A DNA stretch of 64,000 bases, from the IMG/VR virus record IMGVR_UViG_3300028364_000033, positions 1 through 64,000 of that record, one strand, 5' to 3'. The notes beneath the pieces were generated by a model, which searched no databases, had not been told where the DNA came from, and saw only the letters and a program-made list of their open reading frames with translations. Both the position numbers and the translations under genes were made by a program. This DNA comes from a virus. Positions 2,016 through 10,137 of the stretch are shown piece by piece; the first letter of the stretch is position 1, and every line of letters starts with the position of its first letter.

Positions 2016-2297
2016 CTACGTCCATAGTGCTAATCTAATTTTCATCAACCTATTAAGCATCTCATTATCTTCGTCATCATTATCAAATGAATCATCTTTT
2101 TTGCGTTTAACCCACCATTTGTAAAGTAATCTTACTTCATCTACAAAGTCCTTGTGTGCTTCATAGTTGCAATCGGTATCAACATTTTCTTTTTCAACGC
2201 AATCTTTTAATATCTGAAAACAAGCGTGCAACATTATGTGGTCTCTATCAACCCATTGCTTTGCATTTGGTAAACTATCAATTTTTAATATTCTCAT
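2016..2297 (-). CDS. hypothetical protein
   Basis: ORF track. Confidence 0.35.
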   Translation of the reverse strand: MRILKIDSLPNAKQWVDRDHIMLHACFQILKDCVEKENVDTDCNYEAHKDFVDEVRLLYKWWVKRKKDDSFDNDDEDNEMLNRLMKIRLALWT

Positions 2298-2308
2298 AAT
2301 TTTAAATT

Positions 2309-3517
2309 TTATGTGGTTTTTATGCCAAGTTCAAAATTTTCATTTATAAAATCTATAATTTCCTGTGAATCAGAACTAGATTTGAACATTAAATTATATC
2401 CGTGCTTATCTAAATACACAGCCTTTATATCCCCAAAATTTGCTAAATTATTTACTGTATTCATACCACATTCTAAACTACCGCATTGAAATTTCTTTTG
2501 TGATGCCACTGGTACCTCACTAGCCTCTTTTAGCGGTGTATGTGTGTGAATAATACAATCATAACCTGGATTATCCTCGAACATCATCCATTGGCTCCTA
2601 GCACCCACTGATGGCTTATGAGTTCCGTAAGCGGTGAATACATTATCGTTTACCGCAACGTTTGTCATACCGTTTATAAAAACATCATTATGGTTCACTT
2701 TTCTTTGCGAAGAAATAAAACTTTTATCCGATGTTTTATAGCAGAAATGACCTGGAGTAAACCCATTACCATTATTTACTATAAAACCATTGTTATCAAC
2801 CAAGTACTTTAAAACTTCTTTAAATGTTTGTGGTGCACTCTTATCAACTATAACGTTTTTAATATTAACCAATTCAGTTCTATTATAGGTTAAATCATGT
2901 CTATCAAGTATTATCCTACTTAATTCTTTTAGAGTTTTACCTCTTGATTTATATACATATTTAGATTCTTCTGGTGTTATGATTATGTTTTTCCTAGTCA
3001 CAGTATCGTTAGCTAGAACCAAATTACACTTACTGCGCTTCATCATCTTTAAACCAGTTAAAAACTGGTCCTCATCAGATGCATTTGTAGTCGTTTTAAA
3101 GCCAATTAAGAATATGTCTGGTCTAGTAAGTCTAATCTTGTCTATAATCTTCTTAGATGGTGTTAAAGTAAGTGTAATATCACCATCGGATGTTTTTAGA
3201 CGTTCACCATGGAATCCAGCTTCATCGTCAATTACATTGTAGTCACAGAATGCAACGTTTAAAACAATTGTTTTTACGTTTTCATCTAATATTAAATTAT
3301 CAATAAGTAATTCAACATCCTCATTGGTAACCAATTTTGATTTTTTAAAGGCCATCTTCGTATAATGTGTAATAACCTCATACTTATTTGAATCCGACAT
3401 ACTGGTTAAGTATTTCGACATAACCCTAGCCGTTGTACCAAAAGCTGGTGCGCATAGTGATAAATGATTTCTAACTGGTGAAAATGTTCCACCACCGATA
3501 ACTACTATTTTTTTCAT
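2309..3517 (-). CDS. two-domain hypothetical protein; N-terminal DFP/CoaB-like Rossmann motif, C-terminal class-II-aldolase-like HTHTP motif
   Basis: N-term IVVIGGGTFSPVRNHL...FGTTA resembles CoaB GGT-EPIDPVR-ISN-SSGK-G; C-term IIHTHTP resembles class II aldolase/epimerase metal-binding motif. Weak. Confidence 0.35.
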   Translation of the reverse strand: MKKIVVIGGGTFSPVRNHLSLCAPAFGTTARVMSKYLTSMSDSNKYEVITHYTKMAFKKSKLVTNEDVELLIDNLILDENVKTIVLNVAFCDYNVIDDEAGFHGERLKTSDGDITLTLTPSKKIIDKIRLTRPDIFLIGFKTTTNASDEDQFLTGLKMMKRSKCNLVLANDTVTRKNIIITPEESKYVYKSRGKTLKELSRIILDRHDLTYNRTELVNIKNVIVDKSAPQTFKEVLKYLVDNNGFIVNNGNGFTPGHFCYKTSDKSFISSQRKVNHNDVFINGMTNVAVNDNVFTAYGTHKPSVGARSQWMMFEDNPGYDCIIHTHTPLKEASEVPVASQKKFQCGSLECGMNTVNNLANFGDIKAVYLDKHGYNLMFKSSSDSQEIIDFINENFELGIKTT

Positions 3518-3858
3518 ATATTTTTTATTTTGATTTTTAAAAATTCTAGGATTTCGATACCTCTTTCCGTTATTTTATCAGCCATATCTGGGTTATATAA
3601 TGGGAATGTATCATAATTAAATTCACTCGTTTCAATATCAACAAAATACTCTTTATTTTCTGGTTCAATATTATAAACTTCAATAATTTCTAGATATAAA
3701 GCCATATAATGACACATTGGGTGAATTTTATCTGCTAATCCGTTATGTCCATTATTTCTAATACAAAATAACGAAATTTGTCTAATAGTTTCAGCATCTG
3801 TTACGCTAAAATTTTCTAATTTATACATTTCCTCAACTGTCATTATTTTATCACCCAT
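3514..3858 (-). CDS. hypothetical protein
   Basis: ORF track, overlaps upstream gene stop by 4 nt (operon-like). Confidence 0.35.
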   Translation of the reverse strand: MGDKIMTVEEMYKLENFSVTDAETIRQISLFCIRNNGHNGLADKIHPMCHYMALYLEIIEVYNIEPENKEYFVDIETSEFNYDTFPLYNPDMADKITERGIEILEFLKIKIKNI

Positions 3859-3863
3859 TTGTT

Positions 3864-4151
3864 CTATTTTTTACTTTCTTTTCTTATTCCAAAATATGTT
3901 CCTACTGTACCCCCGATTAAAAATGCTAATATCGGTATTAATTGCCCTTCCATAATTGAGTTGGCACCTATTGACATAGATACCAACCAACTAAGCCCAA
4001 TACCGTTTCCAGTTATAATTGAGGCGAGCATTCTTCGTTCCGATGTGTATATTACATTAAGAGTTCTTAAAAATATAAAAATTATTTGAGATATCAAAAC
4101 AACTAGTGCCGAATAATACTCATTCTGCAATATTTCGGACATACTTACCAT
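3864..4151 (-). CDS. small membrane protein (2-3 predicted TM helices)
   Basis: hydrophobic stretches ALVVLISQIIFIF and GIGLSWLVSMSIGA; ILAFLIGGTVGTYFGI. Confidence 0.4.
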   Translation of the reverse strand: MVSMSEILQNEYYSALVVLISQIIFIFLRTLNVIYTSERRMLASIITGNGIGLSWLVSMSIGANSIMEGQLIPILAFLIGGTVGTYFGIRKESKK

Positions 4152-4405
4152 TTTATTTCATAATAAATCTTTTCTCTTGGGTCAGATGGTAATTTTTTTT
4201 TAACCCCAAAACCCCTACTTGCCAACTCCTTAATAGTTAAGTTATCTAAATTGATATAGATATTTACGCTATTTTTATTTTGGTGATTACTTTTAAGTTT
4301 AGAAACTATTAACATTTCACATTCCTTTATCTGATTTAGGACGTGTTTGTCTAATATTTCACTGGCGGTTTTCCTGGCCCATTCTGCTGTAATACTTTTA
4401 TCCAT
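4145..4405 (-). CDS. hypothetical protein
   Basis: ORF track. Confidence 0.35.
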   Translation of the reverse strand: MDKSITAEWARKTASEILDKHVLNQIKECEMLIVSKLKSNHQNKNSVNIYINLDNLTIKELASRGFGVKKKLPSDPREKIYYEIKW

Positions 4406-8728: not shown

Positions 8729-9123
8729 TAGTATAATCTTAAACGTTTAGTTAATTTATCTATTTCGACCGATTTATTAGGTCCTATTGCAGCACACGTT
8801 ATCGTTGGGGTACCATTGAATTCCGTTCTACCCTTATCTATTATTACGTGAGCCTCAAGTCCAGCTTCTTTCGCTTTTTTAACTAAATTTAATAACTTAT
8901 CTTCACTATCTATTTTCAGACAAACTTTAGTATGACCTGTTTTTAACCAGTTAAGGGCATCATCGGACATATTCACATTATTTTTGTGTTTTCCCTGTGC
9001 CATGATTTGTTTTAATATAAATGACATGGAAACATGACTGACCTGGGCCGCAAGTTTACCGATACTCATGTCCAAATCTTTTCTAATTATTATAACTTGT
9101 TTAACTTCTGACATAATTTTCAT
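8728..9123 (-). CDS. peptidyl-tRNA hydrolase, PTH2 family
   Basis: KQVIIIRKDLDMSIGKLAAQVSHVS matches PTH2 core ([24 protein letters not shown]). Confidence 0.7.
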   Translation of the reverse strand: MKIMSEVKQVIIIRKDLDMSIGKLAAQVSHVSMSFILKQIMAQGKHKNNVNMSDDALNWLKTGHTKVCLKIDSEDKLLNLVKKAKEAGLEAHVIIDKGRTEFNGTPTITCAAIGPNKSVEIDKLTKRLRLY

Positions 9124-9134
9124 TTATAGGTCAA

Positions 9135-9163
9135 ATATAGTGAATAAAAACTTATGAAACAAA
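9135..9163 (-). promoter_or_regulatory. sigma70-type promoter TTGTTT-N17-TATATT upstream of PTH2-Nudix-tRNA-binding-ATP-grasp operon
   Basis: family motif caaatatagtg...aaacaa; immediately after terminator at 9167-9187. Confidence 0.4.
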
Positions 9164-9166
9164 AAA

Positions 9167-9187
9167 AACCACTAAAAAGTGGTTTTT
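9167..9187. terminator. bidirectional terminator AACCAC-TAAAAA-GTGGTT
   Basis: 6-bp stem, A-run/T-run flanks. Confidence 0.45.
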
Positions 9188-10137
9188 AATTTATTATAAT
9201 CATTTAATGTTTTCTCAATATCAATATAATCACCATGATTTAGTTTGGAATAACTATATGTTTGTACAATTAAGTTATAACCATCTTTGGCCCGTAAATT
9301 ATTATCTTCATCTTCATTTAATTCATCATAACCTATATAATTTGTATGTTCATTATATTTTGTGTTATCATCAACTATACTTAATTCTGTTCTACCAAAA
9401 TCAAAATTACCATAAGCATCAACAAAGAATATAGTCTTTTTTAGTAAAAATTTGTCTTTTATATAGGTAGTTTCCTCACTTTCTATTAAAGCTAACGCAC
9501 TTTTGAAGTTCCTTGGTGTTACATCATAACCAGATGGAACCTCAACTAATAGATTCAAATTATCGTCAAATTGGTGTTGCATGTAATCATCCAGTTCAAA
9601 ATCATCGTTCTCGTCACCCTGATGGTTTACAGCCGTCACCCCAACATCACCAACAAAATTGTTCAATACGATAAACATATTCTCTATGTTATCATTATCA
9701 CTATAACGTTGGTTATTTTTACAATATTCATAAAATTCATCCTTAGTTAGAATATAGACAAACCCGTAACTGAATACGTCTAAGATTATACCCCCTTTGG
9801 ACCTGATACCAAAACCAGACTCGTCATCTGTAATTAGTGCTGATGGTTCAAAACCGTAATCATAATCTAAACCACAAATAACAATAGTTTGTGGTTCTTT
9901 AAAACTTTTAATTATTCTCATAAAACTTTTTTTAGTTATTAACAGTAACTCCACCCAGATTCGAACTGAGACTTTAACGTTCGTAGCGTTAGGTGCTAAT
10001 CCATTACACCATGGAGCCAAATAAATTAAGTAGCGATAGTGGGGGTCGAACCCACTTGACGTTGGATATGAGCCTACGTTCTTTTCCACTAAGTATCGCA
10101 ATGTGTATAACATTTTACCTATTCCACCACTTATCAA
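9172..10137 (-). CDS. hypothetical acidic protein
   Basis: ORF track; no family recognised. Confidence 0.4.
   Translation of the reverse strand: MISGGIGKMLYTLRYLVEKNVGSYPTSSGFDPHYRYLIYLAPWCNGLAPNATNVKVSVRIWVELLLITKKSFMRIIKSFKEPQTIVICGLDYDYGFEPSALITDDESGFGIRSKGGIILDVFSYGFVYILTKDEFYEYCKNNQRYSDNDNIENMFIVLNNFVGDVGVTAVNHQGDENDDFELDDYMQHQFDDNLNLLVEVPSGYDVTPRNFKSALALIESEETTYIKDKFLLKKTIFFVDAYGNFDFGRTELSIVDDNTKYNEHTNYIGYDELNEDEDNNLRAKDGYNLIVQTYSYSKLNHGDYIDIEKTLNDYNKLKTTF
9946..10019 (-). tRNA. tRNA-Arg (anticodon ACG)
   Basis: hand-folded cloverleaf: acceptor GGCTCCA/TGGAGTT, anticodon stem TAACG/CGTTA loop CTACGAA, T-loop TTCGAAT. Confidence 0.6.
10030..10102 (-). tRNA. tRNA with CAU anticodon (Met or Ile2)
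   Basis: anticodon arm GTAGG-CTCATAT-CCAAC, T-arm GTGGG-TTCGACC-CCCAC; acceptor pairing imperfect. Confidence 0.5.

Follow-up and report, generated by a model that had tools for sequence, protein, structure and literature searches.

An in-frame stop codon in the Walker A motif of a phage RNA-repair kinase, and a candidate natural stop-hop

Results

We analyzed a 64,000-nt stretch of viral DNA (positions 1 to 64,000 of IMG/VR record IMGVR_UViG_3300028364_000033; hereafter the window) in which a first-pass annotation had recognized a cluster of tRNA-repair genes. All of the cluster genes were found where they had been placed, on the minus strand, and each domain call was upheld by profile, structure or PDB comparison. 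A T4-type RNA ligase 1 (Rnl1; 4408-5538; RNA_lig_T4_1, 9e-13; phrog_562, 7e-46) matched T4 Rnl1 over its full length (2c5u, 1.7e-15), including the tRNA-specificity C-domain and the KxDG lysine, and gave no Trl1 match at E≤1. Between it and the gene for an AAA_33-type polynucleotide kinase joined to a 2H cyclic phosphodiesterase (kinase-CPD; 6223-7170) lies a small all-helical ORF with an acidic tail (5839-6222), for which we found just 13 homologues and, with a predicted model of pLDDT 68, no fold match. The adjoining genes encode an R2K-clade ATP-grasp enzyme (7185-7964; R2K_2, 2.7e-38) and a tRNA-binding OB-fold protein (7968-8324; domain match, 7e-8), both lineage-specific neighbors, followed by a Nudix hydrolase (8327-8728; 1.4e-16) and a PTH2-type peptidyl-tRNA hydrolase (8728-9123; 7e-32). 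PTH2 had been thought unusual in a phage, a view not borne out by its match to phrog_1866 at 1e-33.

A tRNA cluster with interspersed homing-endonuclease genes occupies 9945-14689 (minus strand), and 12 of 13 tRNA genes lack an encoded CCA, as had been reported in outline. The call of a class II tRNA nucleotidyltransferase of the CCA-adding type (16740-17852, minus strand) was likewise confirmed (PolyA_pol head domain, 2.7e-37; phrog "tRNA nucleotidyltransferase", 1.4e-53). The window holds at least five homing-endonuclease genes in all. The ORF at 9172-10137 overlaps tRNA-Arg (9945-10018), so its true start is further downstream; gene callers report a 249-aa product at this site on near-identical contigs.

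We surveyed the neighborhoods of 23 loci encoding kinase-CPD. Rnl1 was nearby in 21 of the 23 and the small ORF in 19. Less often nearby were the Nudix gene (7 loci), the CCA enzyme (5) and R2K (2), and no locus had PTH2 or the tRNA-binding protein close to kinase-CPD. The six genes had been grouped as a single toolkit, which is not conserved as a whole. The conserved unit, as far as gene neighborhoods indicate, is only kinase-CPD, the small helical ORF and Rnl1.

The kinase-CPD family has 803 homologues, mostly 312-315 aa long and uninterrupted, in which alignment reveals AAA_33, an invariant Walker A, STD, DNTN and two HxT motifs. An AlphaFold model (pLDDT 91) matched the fungal Trl1 kinase 6u05, T4 PNK and the 2H domain of mouse CNPase in Foldseek. 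The healing enzyme is thus of the Trl1/CNPase type (kinase plus 2H CPDase) and not of the T4 Pnkp type (kinase plus DxDxT phosphatase), in keeping with the earlier suggestion, and the 2'-phosphate expected to be left at the junction follows reasonably from that chemistry. A Pfam scan of 70 window ORFs found no Tpt1/KptA family member.

The fusion of kinase and 2H domains, well founded for the family in its homologues and model, is split in the window by an in-frame TAA that the first-pass annotation had overlooked and that determines whether a kinase exists at all. The stop interrupts Walker A as GVP-TAA-P-GSGKST (CCG TAA CCA, 7065-7057, minus strand). An upstream segment (7063-7170) starts with ATG at 7170, 14 nt past the stop of the R2K gene, and runs for 36 codons to end in ...IIMRGVP; the TAA is at 7060-7062, and the downstream segment (6223-7056) begins GSGKST and supplies the remainder of the kinase together with the 2H domain, which has HHMT and HITI motifs. 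Gene callers annotate only a 266-aa, P-loop-less ORF starting at GTG 7023. Among 120 homologues listed, all 116 that bear a P-loop fit G[IV][PS]G.GK[ST] with no insertion, and the window sequence regains the family consensus GVPGSGKST once 6 nt are taken out, for a conceptual translation of 36 codons, a 6-nt skip and 277 codons (313 aa).

The same stop is present in independent assemblies, including that of a relative whose downstream protein is just 69% identical, and the upstream ORF is open in all of them; this segment is conserved even among relatives with downstream proteins only 45-69% identical. The site does contain CCAGG, and we considered whether a methylated CCWGG-like motif had caused an error in sequencing or assembly. 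Its recurrence in ENA, Logan, JGI and IMG/VR assemblies from many samples, with three different stop codons and co-varying hairpins, excludes an artefact for practical purposes. Codon reassignment was also ruled out except for the TAG cases: 76 of 85 minus-strand ORFs in the window are terminated by TAA, and in several cases the internal stop is the gene's own terminator (TAA/TAA, TGA/TGA). One TAG-bearing locus shows no TAG terminators.

The layout recurs in 53 distinct sequences, nearly all viral contigs and not phylogenetically independent. A strong hairpin stops 0-1 nt short of a Pro codon; a stop codon of any of the three kinds follows, and after it CCN or CUA/CUU. The layout is found in five architectures, namely AAA_33 kinases alone, with 2H, with HD, or with phosphatase and ligase, and UvrD helicases. 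There was no genuine case in 185,579 cellular genomes (596 Gb), where all 9 matches were due to chance.

We scanned IMG/VR for Pro-any codon-Pro, fixing CCN on both sides and leaving the middle codon free. A stop occupied the middle position in 14 of 14 genuine kinases (6 TAA, 6 TGA, 2 TAG); three matches had a sense codon there, and none of these was a kinase ORF. Scans with CCN fixed cannot by themselves show that matching codons are required. When the codon after the stop was left free, in a scan covering only the G[IVM]P...GKS subset, genuine genes had CCN (14 contigs), CTA (17) or CTT (1) and nothing else. The non-proline landing codons CUA and CUU, present in 13 of the 53 sequences, would need a middle-position G.U pair. 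Neither a lone stop as a 3-nt insertion (17 matches) nor Gly-stop-Gly (37 matches) yielded a genuine gene.

These scans bear on whether the stop is simply read through by a near-cognate or suppressor tRNA, giving a 315-aa protein with Pro-X-Pro or Pro-X-Leu within Walker A. The reading frame is open and conserved on both sides of the stop, a C after the stop makes for weak termination, and among the phage's tRNAs are odd ones, including one with CTA in the anticodon loop. However, no TAA-reading tRNA was found in the window, all three stops occur within single families, and a lone stop is never seen in genuine genes, as against stop-C[CT]N in 32 contigs. Such a product would also lack the GxxxxGK[ST] spacing, from which none of the 116 P-loop-bearing homologues listed departs. 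Readthrough is, in our judgment, unlikely.

The position of the structured RNA points the same way, with any stimulator lying 5' and not 3' of the stop. In the window the 5' hairpin (CCCCTCTCA...TGAGAGGGG; 7067-7100, minus strand; MFE -22.4 kcal/mol) has its last pair 1 nt before the putative take-off codon CCG (7063-7065), and it is the strongest of those upstream of 110 in-frame stop junctions in the window. For 12 element-bearing sequences the median MFE was -21.4 kcal/mol and the median z -5.8, with the last pair 0-1 nt from the Pro codon in all 12. Intact homologues do not have the hairpin (55 intact P-loop genes; median MFE -3.9, z 0.27; Mann-Whitney p = 9e-8 against element-bearing sequences). 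Stem sequences vary among families while the position is constant; in the small kinases 89.6% of alignment cells are paired and three pairs are altered on both sides, a value matched by 0 of 500 shuffles. On the 3' side of the stop, structure is not conserved (median z -0.09).

The element has also moved between genes. Across its region DNA identity is 82-96% for genes with 45-69% protein identity, and in a tree element-bearing and intact genes are interspersed. Locus L289, which carries the element, and locus L150, which is intact, share 88% identity along 2.6 kb, apart from about 75 nt immediately 5' of the take-off codon. From these comparisons the hairpin with its Pro-stop-CYN is evidently a transferable cassette of about 75 nt that is shared by several phage P-loop NTPase gene families.

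Exchange between genes would also suit a kinase that is simply off, the locus making only a 36-aa peptide or, from GTG 7023, a P-loop-less fragment with at most CPDase activity. The cassette would then be a selfish or immunity allele, for instance one whose 6 inserted nt abolish a homing-endonuclease site in conserved P-loop DNA; the window's complement of homing-endonuclease genes and the choice of the 266-aa ORF by gene callers fit such a state. Yet the motifs past the stop are still conserved (GSGKST, STD, DNTN, RN.H), as is the stretch PGSGKST...ELV from the stop to GTG 7023, which would then not be translated. No internal start codon is present in the small kinases and helicases, and the hairpin and the restricted landing codon would go unexplained. 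An inactive kinase is therefore quite unlikely, although the immunity idea is compatible with a hop and may explain how the cassette spread.

Six bases could instead be missing from the mRNA itself, either because RNA polymerase realigned behind the nascent hairpin or because the transcript was cut and religated, so that it would encode an intact P-loop. The 9 nt of CCG-UAA-CCA directly past the hairpin would be about the length of the RNA-DNA hybrid, and RNA ligases are encoded at the kinase loci, which were the loci examined for them. Against this, the flanking repeats are just 1-2 nt in the CTA class, and we are aware of no case in which transcription skips exactly 6 nt. A requirement for a stop codon, and not for any triplet, points to the ribosome rather than to an RNA-level event, which we regard as very unlikely.

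Discussion

We hold it reasonably probable that the region is a heal-and-seal RNA repair unit in which synthesis of the healing enzyme depends on programmed recoding, a +6 stop-hop. Most likely, judging from the conserved layout, the hairpin-Pro-stop signal makes ribosomes skip six bases. We infer that the event is translational, and a hop rather than another form of read-across, and we infer its efficiency and purpose likewise. After 36 codons the ribosome would halt, its P site occupied by peptidyl-tRNA-Pro paired to CCG and its A site by TAA. Release is slow at a stop codon that has proline before it and C after it. The G+C-rich hairpin would have its 5' arm already out and its 3' arm still inside the ribosome, and its re-zipping would draw the mRNA forward. 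The anticodon of tRNA-Pro could then let go of CCG and re-pair six bases downstream on the putative landing codon CCA (7057-7059; in relatives CCN or CUA, the latter by a middle-position G.U pair), with decoding restarting at GGU (GGT 7056). If such a hop is true, nine bases would be decoded as one proline and the product would have the canonical Walker A GVPGSGKST. The Trl1-like kinase and 2H CPDase would heal and the T4-type Rnl1 would seal, with the small helical protein encoded between them.

As RNA repair, the unit of kinase-CPD, small ORF and Rnl1 is of an already known kind in phages, and the tRNA-repair gene cluster is genuine yet ordinary for a large phage. Like fungal and plant Trl1 KIN-CPD, the enzyme has a P-loop polynucleotide kinase joined to a 2H cyclic phosphodiesterase, and its best structural match, by the predicted model, is the fungal Trl1 kinase 6u05, aligned over both domains. 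The separate ligase protein recalls split heal-and-seal systems (the Mucorales "sealing-only" ligase). Unlike Trl1 systems, however, the unit is phage-encoded, its ligase is T4 Rnl1-like and not Trl1-LIG, and a small helical ORF lies between the two genes. In the repair of anticodon-nuclease damage, T4 Pnkp and Rnl1 similarly combine a 5' kinase with an Rnl1 carrying a tRNA-specificity C-domain, but 3' healing there is by a DxDxT phosphatase and here by a 2H CPDase, so that a 2'-phosphate would be expected at the junction.

Repair and translation-maintenance genes of large ("jumbo") phages have been surveyed before (Iyer et al. 2021, PMC7824862). The passages of that survey that we examined describe ligases, polynucleotide kinases, 2H phosphoesterases, CCA-adding enzymes, R2K ATP-grasp and Nudix proteins and many tRNAs, and cite a Pth2 paper; they make no mention of an interrupted P-loop or recoding.

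The phage element resembles T4 gene 60-type bypassing in being phage-borne and a transferable insert, in having a variable stop directly past the take-off codon, and in 5' mRNA pairing that can form on leaving the ribosome. Among gene 60 relatives the identity of the stop past take-off is variable, and take-off and landing codons may differ in the third base (PMC5009743; bioRxiv 2022.08.31.505936), and mRNA pairing at the ribosome exit has been proposed to drive forward bypassing (bioRxiv 2024.12.09.627546). The differences are considerable. The gap is 6 nt and not 50, take-off is at Pro (CCN) and not at Gly or Asp as in gene 60 and its relatives, and there is no take-off stem-loop containing the stop. 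In some families the nascent chain is only 10-12 residues long at take-off, so a long nascent-peptide signal of the gene 60 type is not a general part of the element; so short a chain might promote ribosome drop-off. The element also spans five P-loop protein architectures, whereas gene 60 represents one orthologous insert in one gene.

Another close parallel is with synthetic stop-hops in E. coli, in which matched codons around a stop let 9 nt be read as one amino acid (Weiss, Dunn, Atkins and Gesteland 1987, as summarized in PMC5009743). No natural occurrence was known to that 2016 review, and the synthetic constructs, which have no stimulators, are described as hopping at a low level (bioRxiv 2024.12.09.627546). 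In the literature that we searched, stop-hops were reported only from artificial constructs. The core logic is common to both: a codon, a stop and a matching codon. The phage site differs from those laboratory constructs in being natural, conserved and equipped with a positioned hairpin.

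An in-frame stop interrupts Walker A of the kinase-CPD gene

The kinase-CPD gene (6223-7170, minus strand) couples an AAA_33-type polynucleotide kinase to a 2H cyclic phosphodiesterase. The gene caller placed its ORF at 6223-7023, with a GTG start and without a P-loop, and it was recorded as a 266-aa protein. Extended upstream of 7023, the same frame reads MKNNIRK...IIMRGVP*PGSGKSTRAKELVGEG, where the asterisk marks a stop codon: an ATG at 7170 opens 36 codons, followed by TAA at 7062-7060 and then the rest of Walker A. The stop lies between two proline codons, which we call the take-off codon (CCG, 7065-7063) and the landing codon (CCA, 7059-7057), and Walker A is intact in this copy only after a skip of 6 nt, which would give GVPGSGKST and a product of 313 aa. 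After the six bases were deleted from the query, a database search returned 803 relatives. The 120 listed of these were nearly all 312-315 aa in length, or ~380 aa with an N-terminal extension; AAA_33 was present, and MRG[IV][PS]G[SAG]GKST was uninterrupted in nearly all.

Walker A (GxxGxGKS), STD, DNTN, RN.H and two HxT motifs (HHMT and H.T) were invariant in the kinase-CPD alignment. An AlphaFold model of an intact homologue (75% identical) had a pLDDT of 91, and its best PDB match by Foldseek was the fungal Trl1 RNA kinase 6u05, aligned across both domains. The next matches, to the N-terminal half, were T4 PNK, the Clostridium thermocellum Pnkp kinase and mammalian PNKP (1ly1 and 4gp6 among the matches), while the C-terminal half matched the mouse CNPase catalytic domain. 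The Pfam tRNA_lig_CPD match to the window gene was weak (2.5e-3, under the curated cut-off). Alignment and model show the fold of a P-loop polynucleotide kinase with Walker A and a catalytic Asp, joined to a 2H fold with its two HxT/S motifs, and we regard kinase-CPD as a predicted healing enzyme of the Trl1/CNPase type, one that would phosphorylate a 5'-OH and open a 2',3'-cyclic phosphate to 2'-PO4. The first-pass annotation, which had described a kinase fused to a 2H phosphoesterase, was right for the family, because the homologue motifs and the model matches cover both domains; in this genome the fusion does not stand unless the stop is passed.

Six ENA and Logan assemblies of this phage carry the identical stop site, as do two relatives. 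The protein of one relative is 88% identical; that of the other is 69% identical, and there the upstream ORF is still open despite its divergence (MGIIKSVLRNFLNVKISRPSQILYIMRGVP*PGAGKST). We consider it quite unlikely that the gene is silenced. Codon reassignment was rejected in view of the use of TAA as the terminator of 76 of the 85 minus-strand ORFs in the window, and of several element-bearing genes in which the internal stop is the same codon as the gene's own terminator. We also rejected +1 and -1 frameshifting, as both frames meet stops within ~20 codons with no return to the GK[ST] frame, and internal restart, as the stretch from the stop to the P-loop lysine contains no start codon.

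The interruption recurs in other phage P-loop genes

We looked for recurrence by pattern scans of IMG/VR viral contigs, except where another database is named. The pattern G[IVM]P-TAA-P-GxGKS occurred in 6 contigs, all with genuine P-loop kinase genes, in three architectures. When the codon between the two prolines was left free, the scan matched 17 contigs, 14 of them with genuine kinases, and a stop stood in between in all 14 (6 TAA, 6 TGA and 2 TAG); the 3 sense-codon matches were not kinase ORFs. A relaxed scan, with the residue before Pro free and either GKS or GKT accepted, matched 68 contigs with ~50 genuine genes carrying the stop, and added UvrD-family helicases of ~490 aa (GPP*PGTGKTT) and a Pnkp-like kinase-metallophosphatase-ligase protein. 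With TGG in place of the stop in the relaxed scan, 8 of 8 matches were chance. Leaving the post-stop codon free yielded genuine genes with only CCN (14 contigs), CTA (17) or CTT (1) at that position. Two control patterns in IMG/VR gave no genuine genes: a lone stop as a 3-nt insertion (17 matches) and Gly-stop-Gly one codon further on, as for a hop at the neighbouring glycine (37 matches). The same kind of pattern had 9 matches in 185,579 bacterial and archaeal genomes, all of them chance, and a metagenome scan gave at least 2 kinase cases among listed matches that were mostly GC-rich chance matches. No second hop site was found among the 110 in-frame stop junctions in the window.

In many isolate phages, intact homologues of the element-bearing small kinases adjoin a gene for RNA ligase 1; with the Pnkp-like kinase-phosphatase-ligase, the hosts of the element are thus mostly RNA-repair kinases. 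In one UvrD-type helicase gene with the Pro-stop-Pro element (L253, IMGVR_UViG_3300001567_000291), a long internal insert, which might be an intein, brings the downstream part to ~960 aa rather than ~490 aa.

The pooled set comprised 53 distinct element sequences, in all of which the stop directly follows the take-off codon. Take-off codons were CCT (32), CCG (16), CCA (5) and CCC (0), stops were TGA (22), TAA (20) and TAG (11), and landing codons were CCA (25), CCG (11), CCT (4), CTA (12) and CTT (1), proportions that are not unbiased because the scan constraints differed. Landing is on CCN in 40 of 53; the 13 CTA or CTT codons match nearly, through a G.U pair at the middle position, and close relatives can differ by CCA versus CTA alone. 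Judged from these codons, take-off and landing would be readable by the same peptidyl-tRNA, and the stop would place a slow-to-decode codon in the A site at take-off. This layout, in which nine bases (a codon, a stop and a same-tRNA codon) become one amino acid, fits a stop-hop, and the proposed hop yields the exact consensus Walker A. Removal of the six bases at the RNA level is very unlikely.

Isolate phage DSL-LC04 has a helicase 66% identical to an element-bearing one, yet its gene is intact. Megablast of the region against phage records gave no match, and tblastn of kinase-CPD against isolate phages gave matches of only ~32%, to the kinase half. Isolate matches to a 746-aa ORF reached at most 25%. 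By these searches, the region appears to be without a cultured relative.

A hairpin lies directly 5' of the take-off codon

A hairpin is formed by the 45 nt preceding the Pro codon in all element-bearing sequences, and its last pair is 0-1 nt away from that codon. The first 12 distinct element sequences had a median MFE of -21.4 kcal/mol (median z of -5.8 versus shuffles), whereas in 55 intact P-loop genes the median MFE was -3.9 kcal/mol and the median z was 0.27 (Mann-Whitney p = 9e-8), and the positioned hairpin was absent from 11 intact kinase-CPD genes. The stems are made of coding sequence and differ from family to family, with arms CCCCTCTCA/TGAGAGGGG in kinase-CPD genes, CCCCCC.../...GGGGGG and variable inner stems in small kinases, ATGCCAAT/ATTGGCAT in kinase-HD genes, and GGGCCGAAGA/TCTTCGGCCC in helicases.

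The hairpin is supported by folds of the individual sequences, by shuffles and by an outer helix specified by hand. In the small kinases, 89.6% of cells in this outer helix were paired, 3 pairs were changed on both sides, and the observed value was reached by 0 of 500 shuffles. RNAalifold recovered only the outer 5 pairs in the small kinases, where the inner stems shift register, and gave no consensus for the helicases because their loop lengths vary. The positioned 5' hairpin co-occurs with the stop and covaries, and may stimulate the proposed hop; no conserved structure was found 3' of the stop. None of the other in-frame stop junctions in the window, 110 in all with site 7062, has an upstream hairpin as strong as the one at this site. 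Other strong hairpins in the window resemble terminator stems, and T runs come after several of these.

In one group of loci (L009-L011, L242, L252 and L271), the hairpin's 5' arm and the start codon overlap in kinase-HD genes, while in some helicase genes the arm stops just short of the start codon. Only 10-12 codons precede take-off in these genes, so the same hairpin could also gate initiation there.

Alleles exchange the cassette

In a comparison of the window with seven further kinase-CPD genes that carry the element, identity was 82-96% over the 51-nt element region, 62-68% over the next 300 nt and 45-69% for the downstream proteins. Element-bearing and intact genes were interspersed in a tree of the downstream proteins. 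An element-bearing locus (L289) and an intact one (L150) were 88% identical over 2.6 kb, save for ~75 nt directly 5' of the take-off codon, where mismatches numbered 17, 15 and 11 per 30 nt versus 1-6 in most other coding windows. Over those ~75 nt, L289 and the window's cassette are 96% identical. Divergence confined to ~75 nt, together with this match, shows that alleles exchange the cassette.

A broader reading, to which we give about even weight for and against, is that a mobile ~75-nt cassette has become dispersed across P-loop NTPase genes of phages, those for RNA-repair kinases and UvrD helicases, and programs six-base hops in them, which would make it the first natural class of short-range stop-hopping. 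Immunity to nucleases targeting conserved P-loop DNA might have driven the spread, or the cassette might be used to tie enzyme synthesis to the state of translation termination.

Repair genes and other features of the window

The window is ~30% G+C, and its minus strand holds 85 of the 95 non-nested ORFs. Profile searches upheld the domain list of the first-pass annotation, all on the minus strand: a T4-type RNA ligase 1, Rnl1 (4408-5538; Pfam 9e-13, phrog_562 7e-46), an R2K ATP-grasp (7185-7964; 2.7e-38), a tRNA-binding domain (7968-8324; 7e-8), a Nudix (8327-8728; 1.4e-16), a PTH2 (8728-9123; 7e-32), and a class II tRNA nucleotidyltransferase, the CCA enzyme (16740-17852; 2.7e-37). Residues 40-353 of the ligase align with residues 37-346 of T4 Rnl1, C-domain and motif I lysine included, and EKLDGSL in the window is aligned to TKEDGSL of T4 Rnl1; fungal Trl1 ligase gave no match. 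The alignment argues for an Rnl1 family member, with a predicted adenylyltransferase domain bearing the KxDG lysine and the Rnl1-specific C-domain, which defines the family and gives tRNA specificity (PMC11404444). The tRNA genes, described as mostly lacking an encoded CCA, do so in all but one of 13 (9945-14689, minus strand). PTH2 had been thought an unusual type for a phage, a view that does not fit its existing PHROG family, and such repair and translation-maintenance genes are already described for large phages (PMC7824862).

The proposal that six of these genes form one linked tRNA maintenance module gave way on comparison of 23 loci encoding kinase-CPD, in which Rnl1 and a small ORF (5839-6222 in the window) were scored within 8 kb. 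Of the 23 loci, 21 had Rnl1 near kinase-CPD and 19 had the small ORF, which leaves kinase-CPD, small ORF and Rnl1 as the conserved unit. The Nudix was nearby in 7 loci, the CCA enzyme in 5 and R2K in 2, and PTH2 and the tRNA-binding protein in none of the 23. The small ORF is all-helical in a predicted model, with no recognisable relatives and no Pfam, PHROG or fold match. Healing by the CPDase predicts a 2'-phosphate at the junction; Tpt1/KptA (PTS_2-RNA family) was absent among the Pfam families of the 70 window ORFs scanned, in a genome of >132 kb, over twice the window. A 402-aa fusion at 2309-3517 (minus strand) has a DFP/CoaB-like domain (Pfam 1.5e-7, phrog_35624 2.6e-43) and a weak class II aldolase-like C-terminal half; its PDB matches were weak only, and it was not linked to kinase-CPD in other loci. 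The fusion falls within the span covered by the first-pass annotation, which does not list it.

Four of the 13 tRNA genes (10429-10503, 10571-10663, 13000-13080 and 14534-14605, minus strand) were drawn by ARAGORN with 6-nt anticodon loops, in that order TTCTTA, one with a long variable arm, TTCGAT, and GACTAG (which contains CTA). They scored 41-48 bits with the Rfam tRNA model and could be nuclease-resistant or otherwise non-standard decoders. A 58-nt Rfam tRNA match (42.8 bits) at 12369-12426 (minus strand), apparently without an anticodon arm, lies within ORF 12053-12439. The window has at least 5 homing-endonuclease genes (GIY-YIG, HNH and NUMOD), including 10996-11667, 13730-14215 and ORFs downstream, and two of them sit within the tRNA cluster. 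Families listed for the region 20000-64000 as a whole were DUF2828 with DUF7788 and VWA_CoxE, Band_7, ClpP, FKBP, YAcAr SLOG, a second Nudix, a sigma-70 factor, a DnaG-type primase and an intein-containing gene. ARAGORN also predicted a phage tmRNA at 27230-27591 (minus strand) with the tag GNEFDIDKNFLDTATLGVGMGEVALA, which is of interest given the proposed ribosome pause at the stop.

Proposed mechanism and comparison with known bypassing

Termination is poor with proline in the P site, and also where C comes after the stop. Readthrough, with the stop decoded as an amino acid in a 315-aa product, usually draws on a 3' context or structure or on a suppressor tRNA. It is unlikely here, and no suppressor tRNA for TAA was found in the window. 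We consider it probable that the site is a programmed +6 stop-hop. Some full-length product across the stop seems very likely, and the hop itself would be what makes it. At take-off, the 3' arm of the hairpin would be inside the ribosome and the 5' arm already out, and re-zipping of the hairpin would pull the mRNA forward. One published proposal is that forward movement is driven by mRNA pairing on ribosome exit (bioRxiv 2024.12.09.627546). The stop-hop could serve regulation by termination efficiency or limit expression, or it could be a by-product of an insertion that shields P-loop DNA from homing nucleases.

If this reading is true, the element offers dozens of very short bypass sites that are natural and diverse and share a simple two-part signal, so that the mechanics of take-off, mRNA pulling and landing could be tested with small reporters. 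Gene callers truncate or split the element-bearing genes, as in the P-loop-less 266-aa record from the window, and phage RNA-repair kinases and helicases would therefore be mis-annotated or taken for pseudogenes. Beside the gene 60 insert, it would also give a second system in which to ask what leads phages to tolerate, or exploit, interruptions in essential motifs. The repair module matters less, as a phage example pairing Trl1-type healing with T4-type sealing.

To our knowledge, utilised bypassing is limited to T4 gene 60 with the relatives of that gene, to numerous inserts of a single yeast mitochondrial genome, and to a handful of unproven candidates. Searches of the available literature up to 2026 gave no report of this element, and as far as that literature shows, the interrupted P-loop with its hairpin would be an undescribed natural variant of programmed bypassing. 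Such stop-hops are seen with synthetic constructs, and no natural occurrences of in-frame stop hopping were known according to the 2016 review by Atkins and colleagues (PMC5009743). Among gene 60 relatives, the identity of the stop that follows take-off is variable, and the codons for take-off and landing need not agree in their third base (bioRxiv 2022.08.31.505936). T4 gene 60 has a 50-nt gap, a take-off stem-loop that holds the stop, and a nascent-peptide signal, whereas the element has a 6-nt gap, no 3' structure and, in some families, only 10-12 residues at take-off. Exchange of the cassette between near-identical genes, in turn, echoes the mobile origin proposed for the T4 gene 60 insert.
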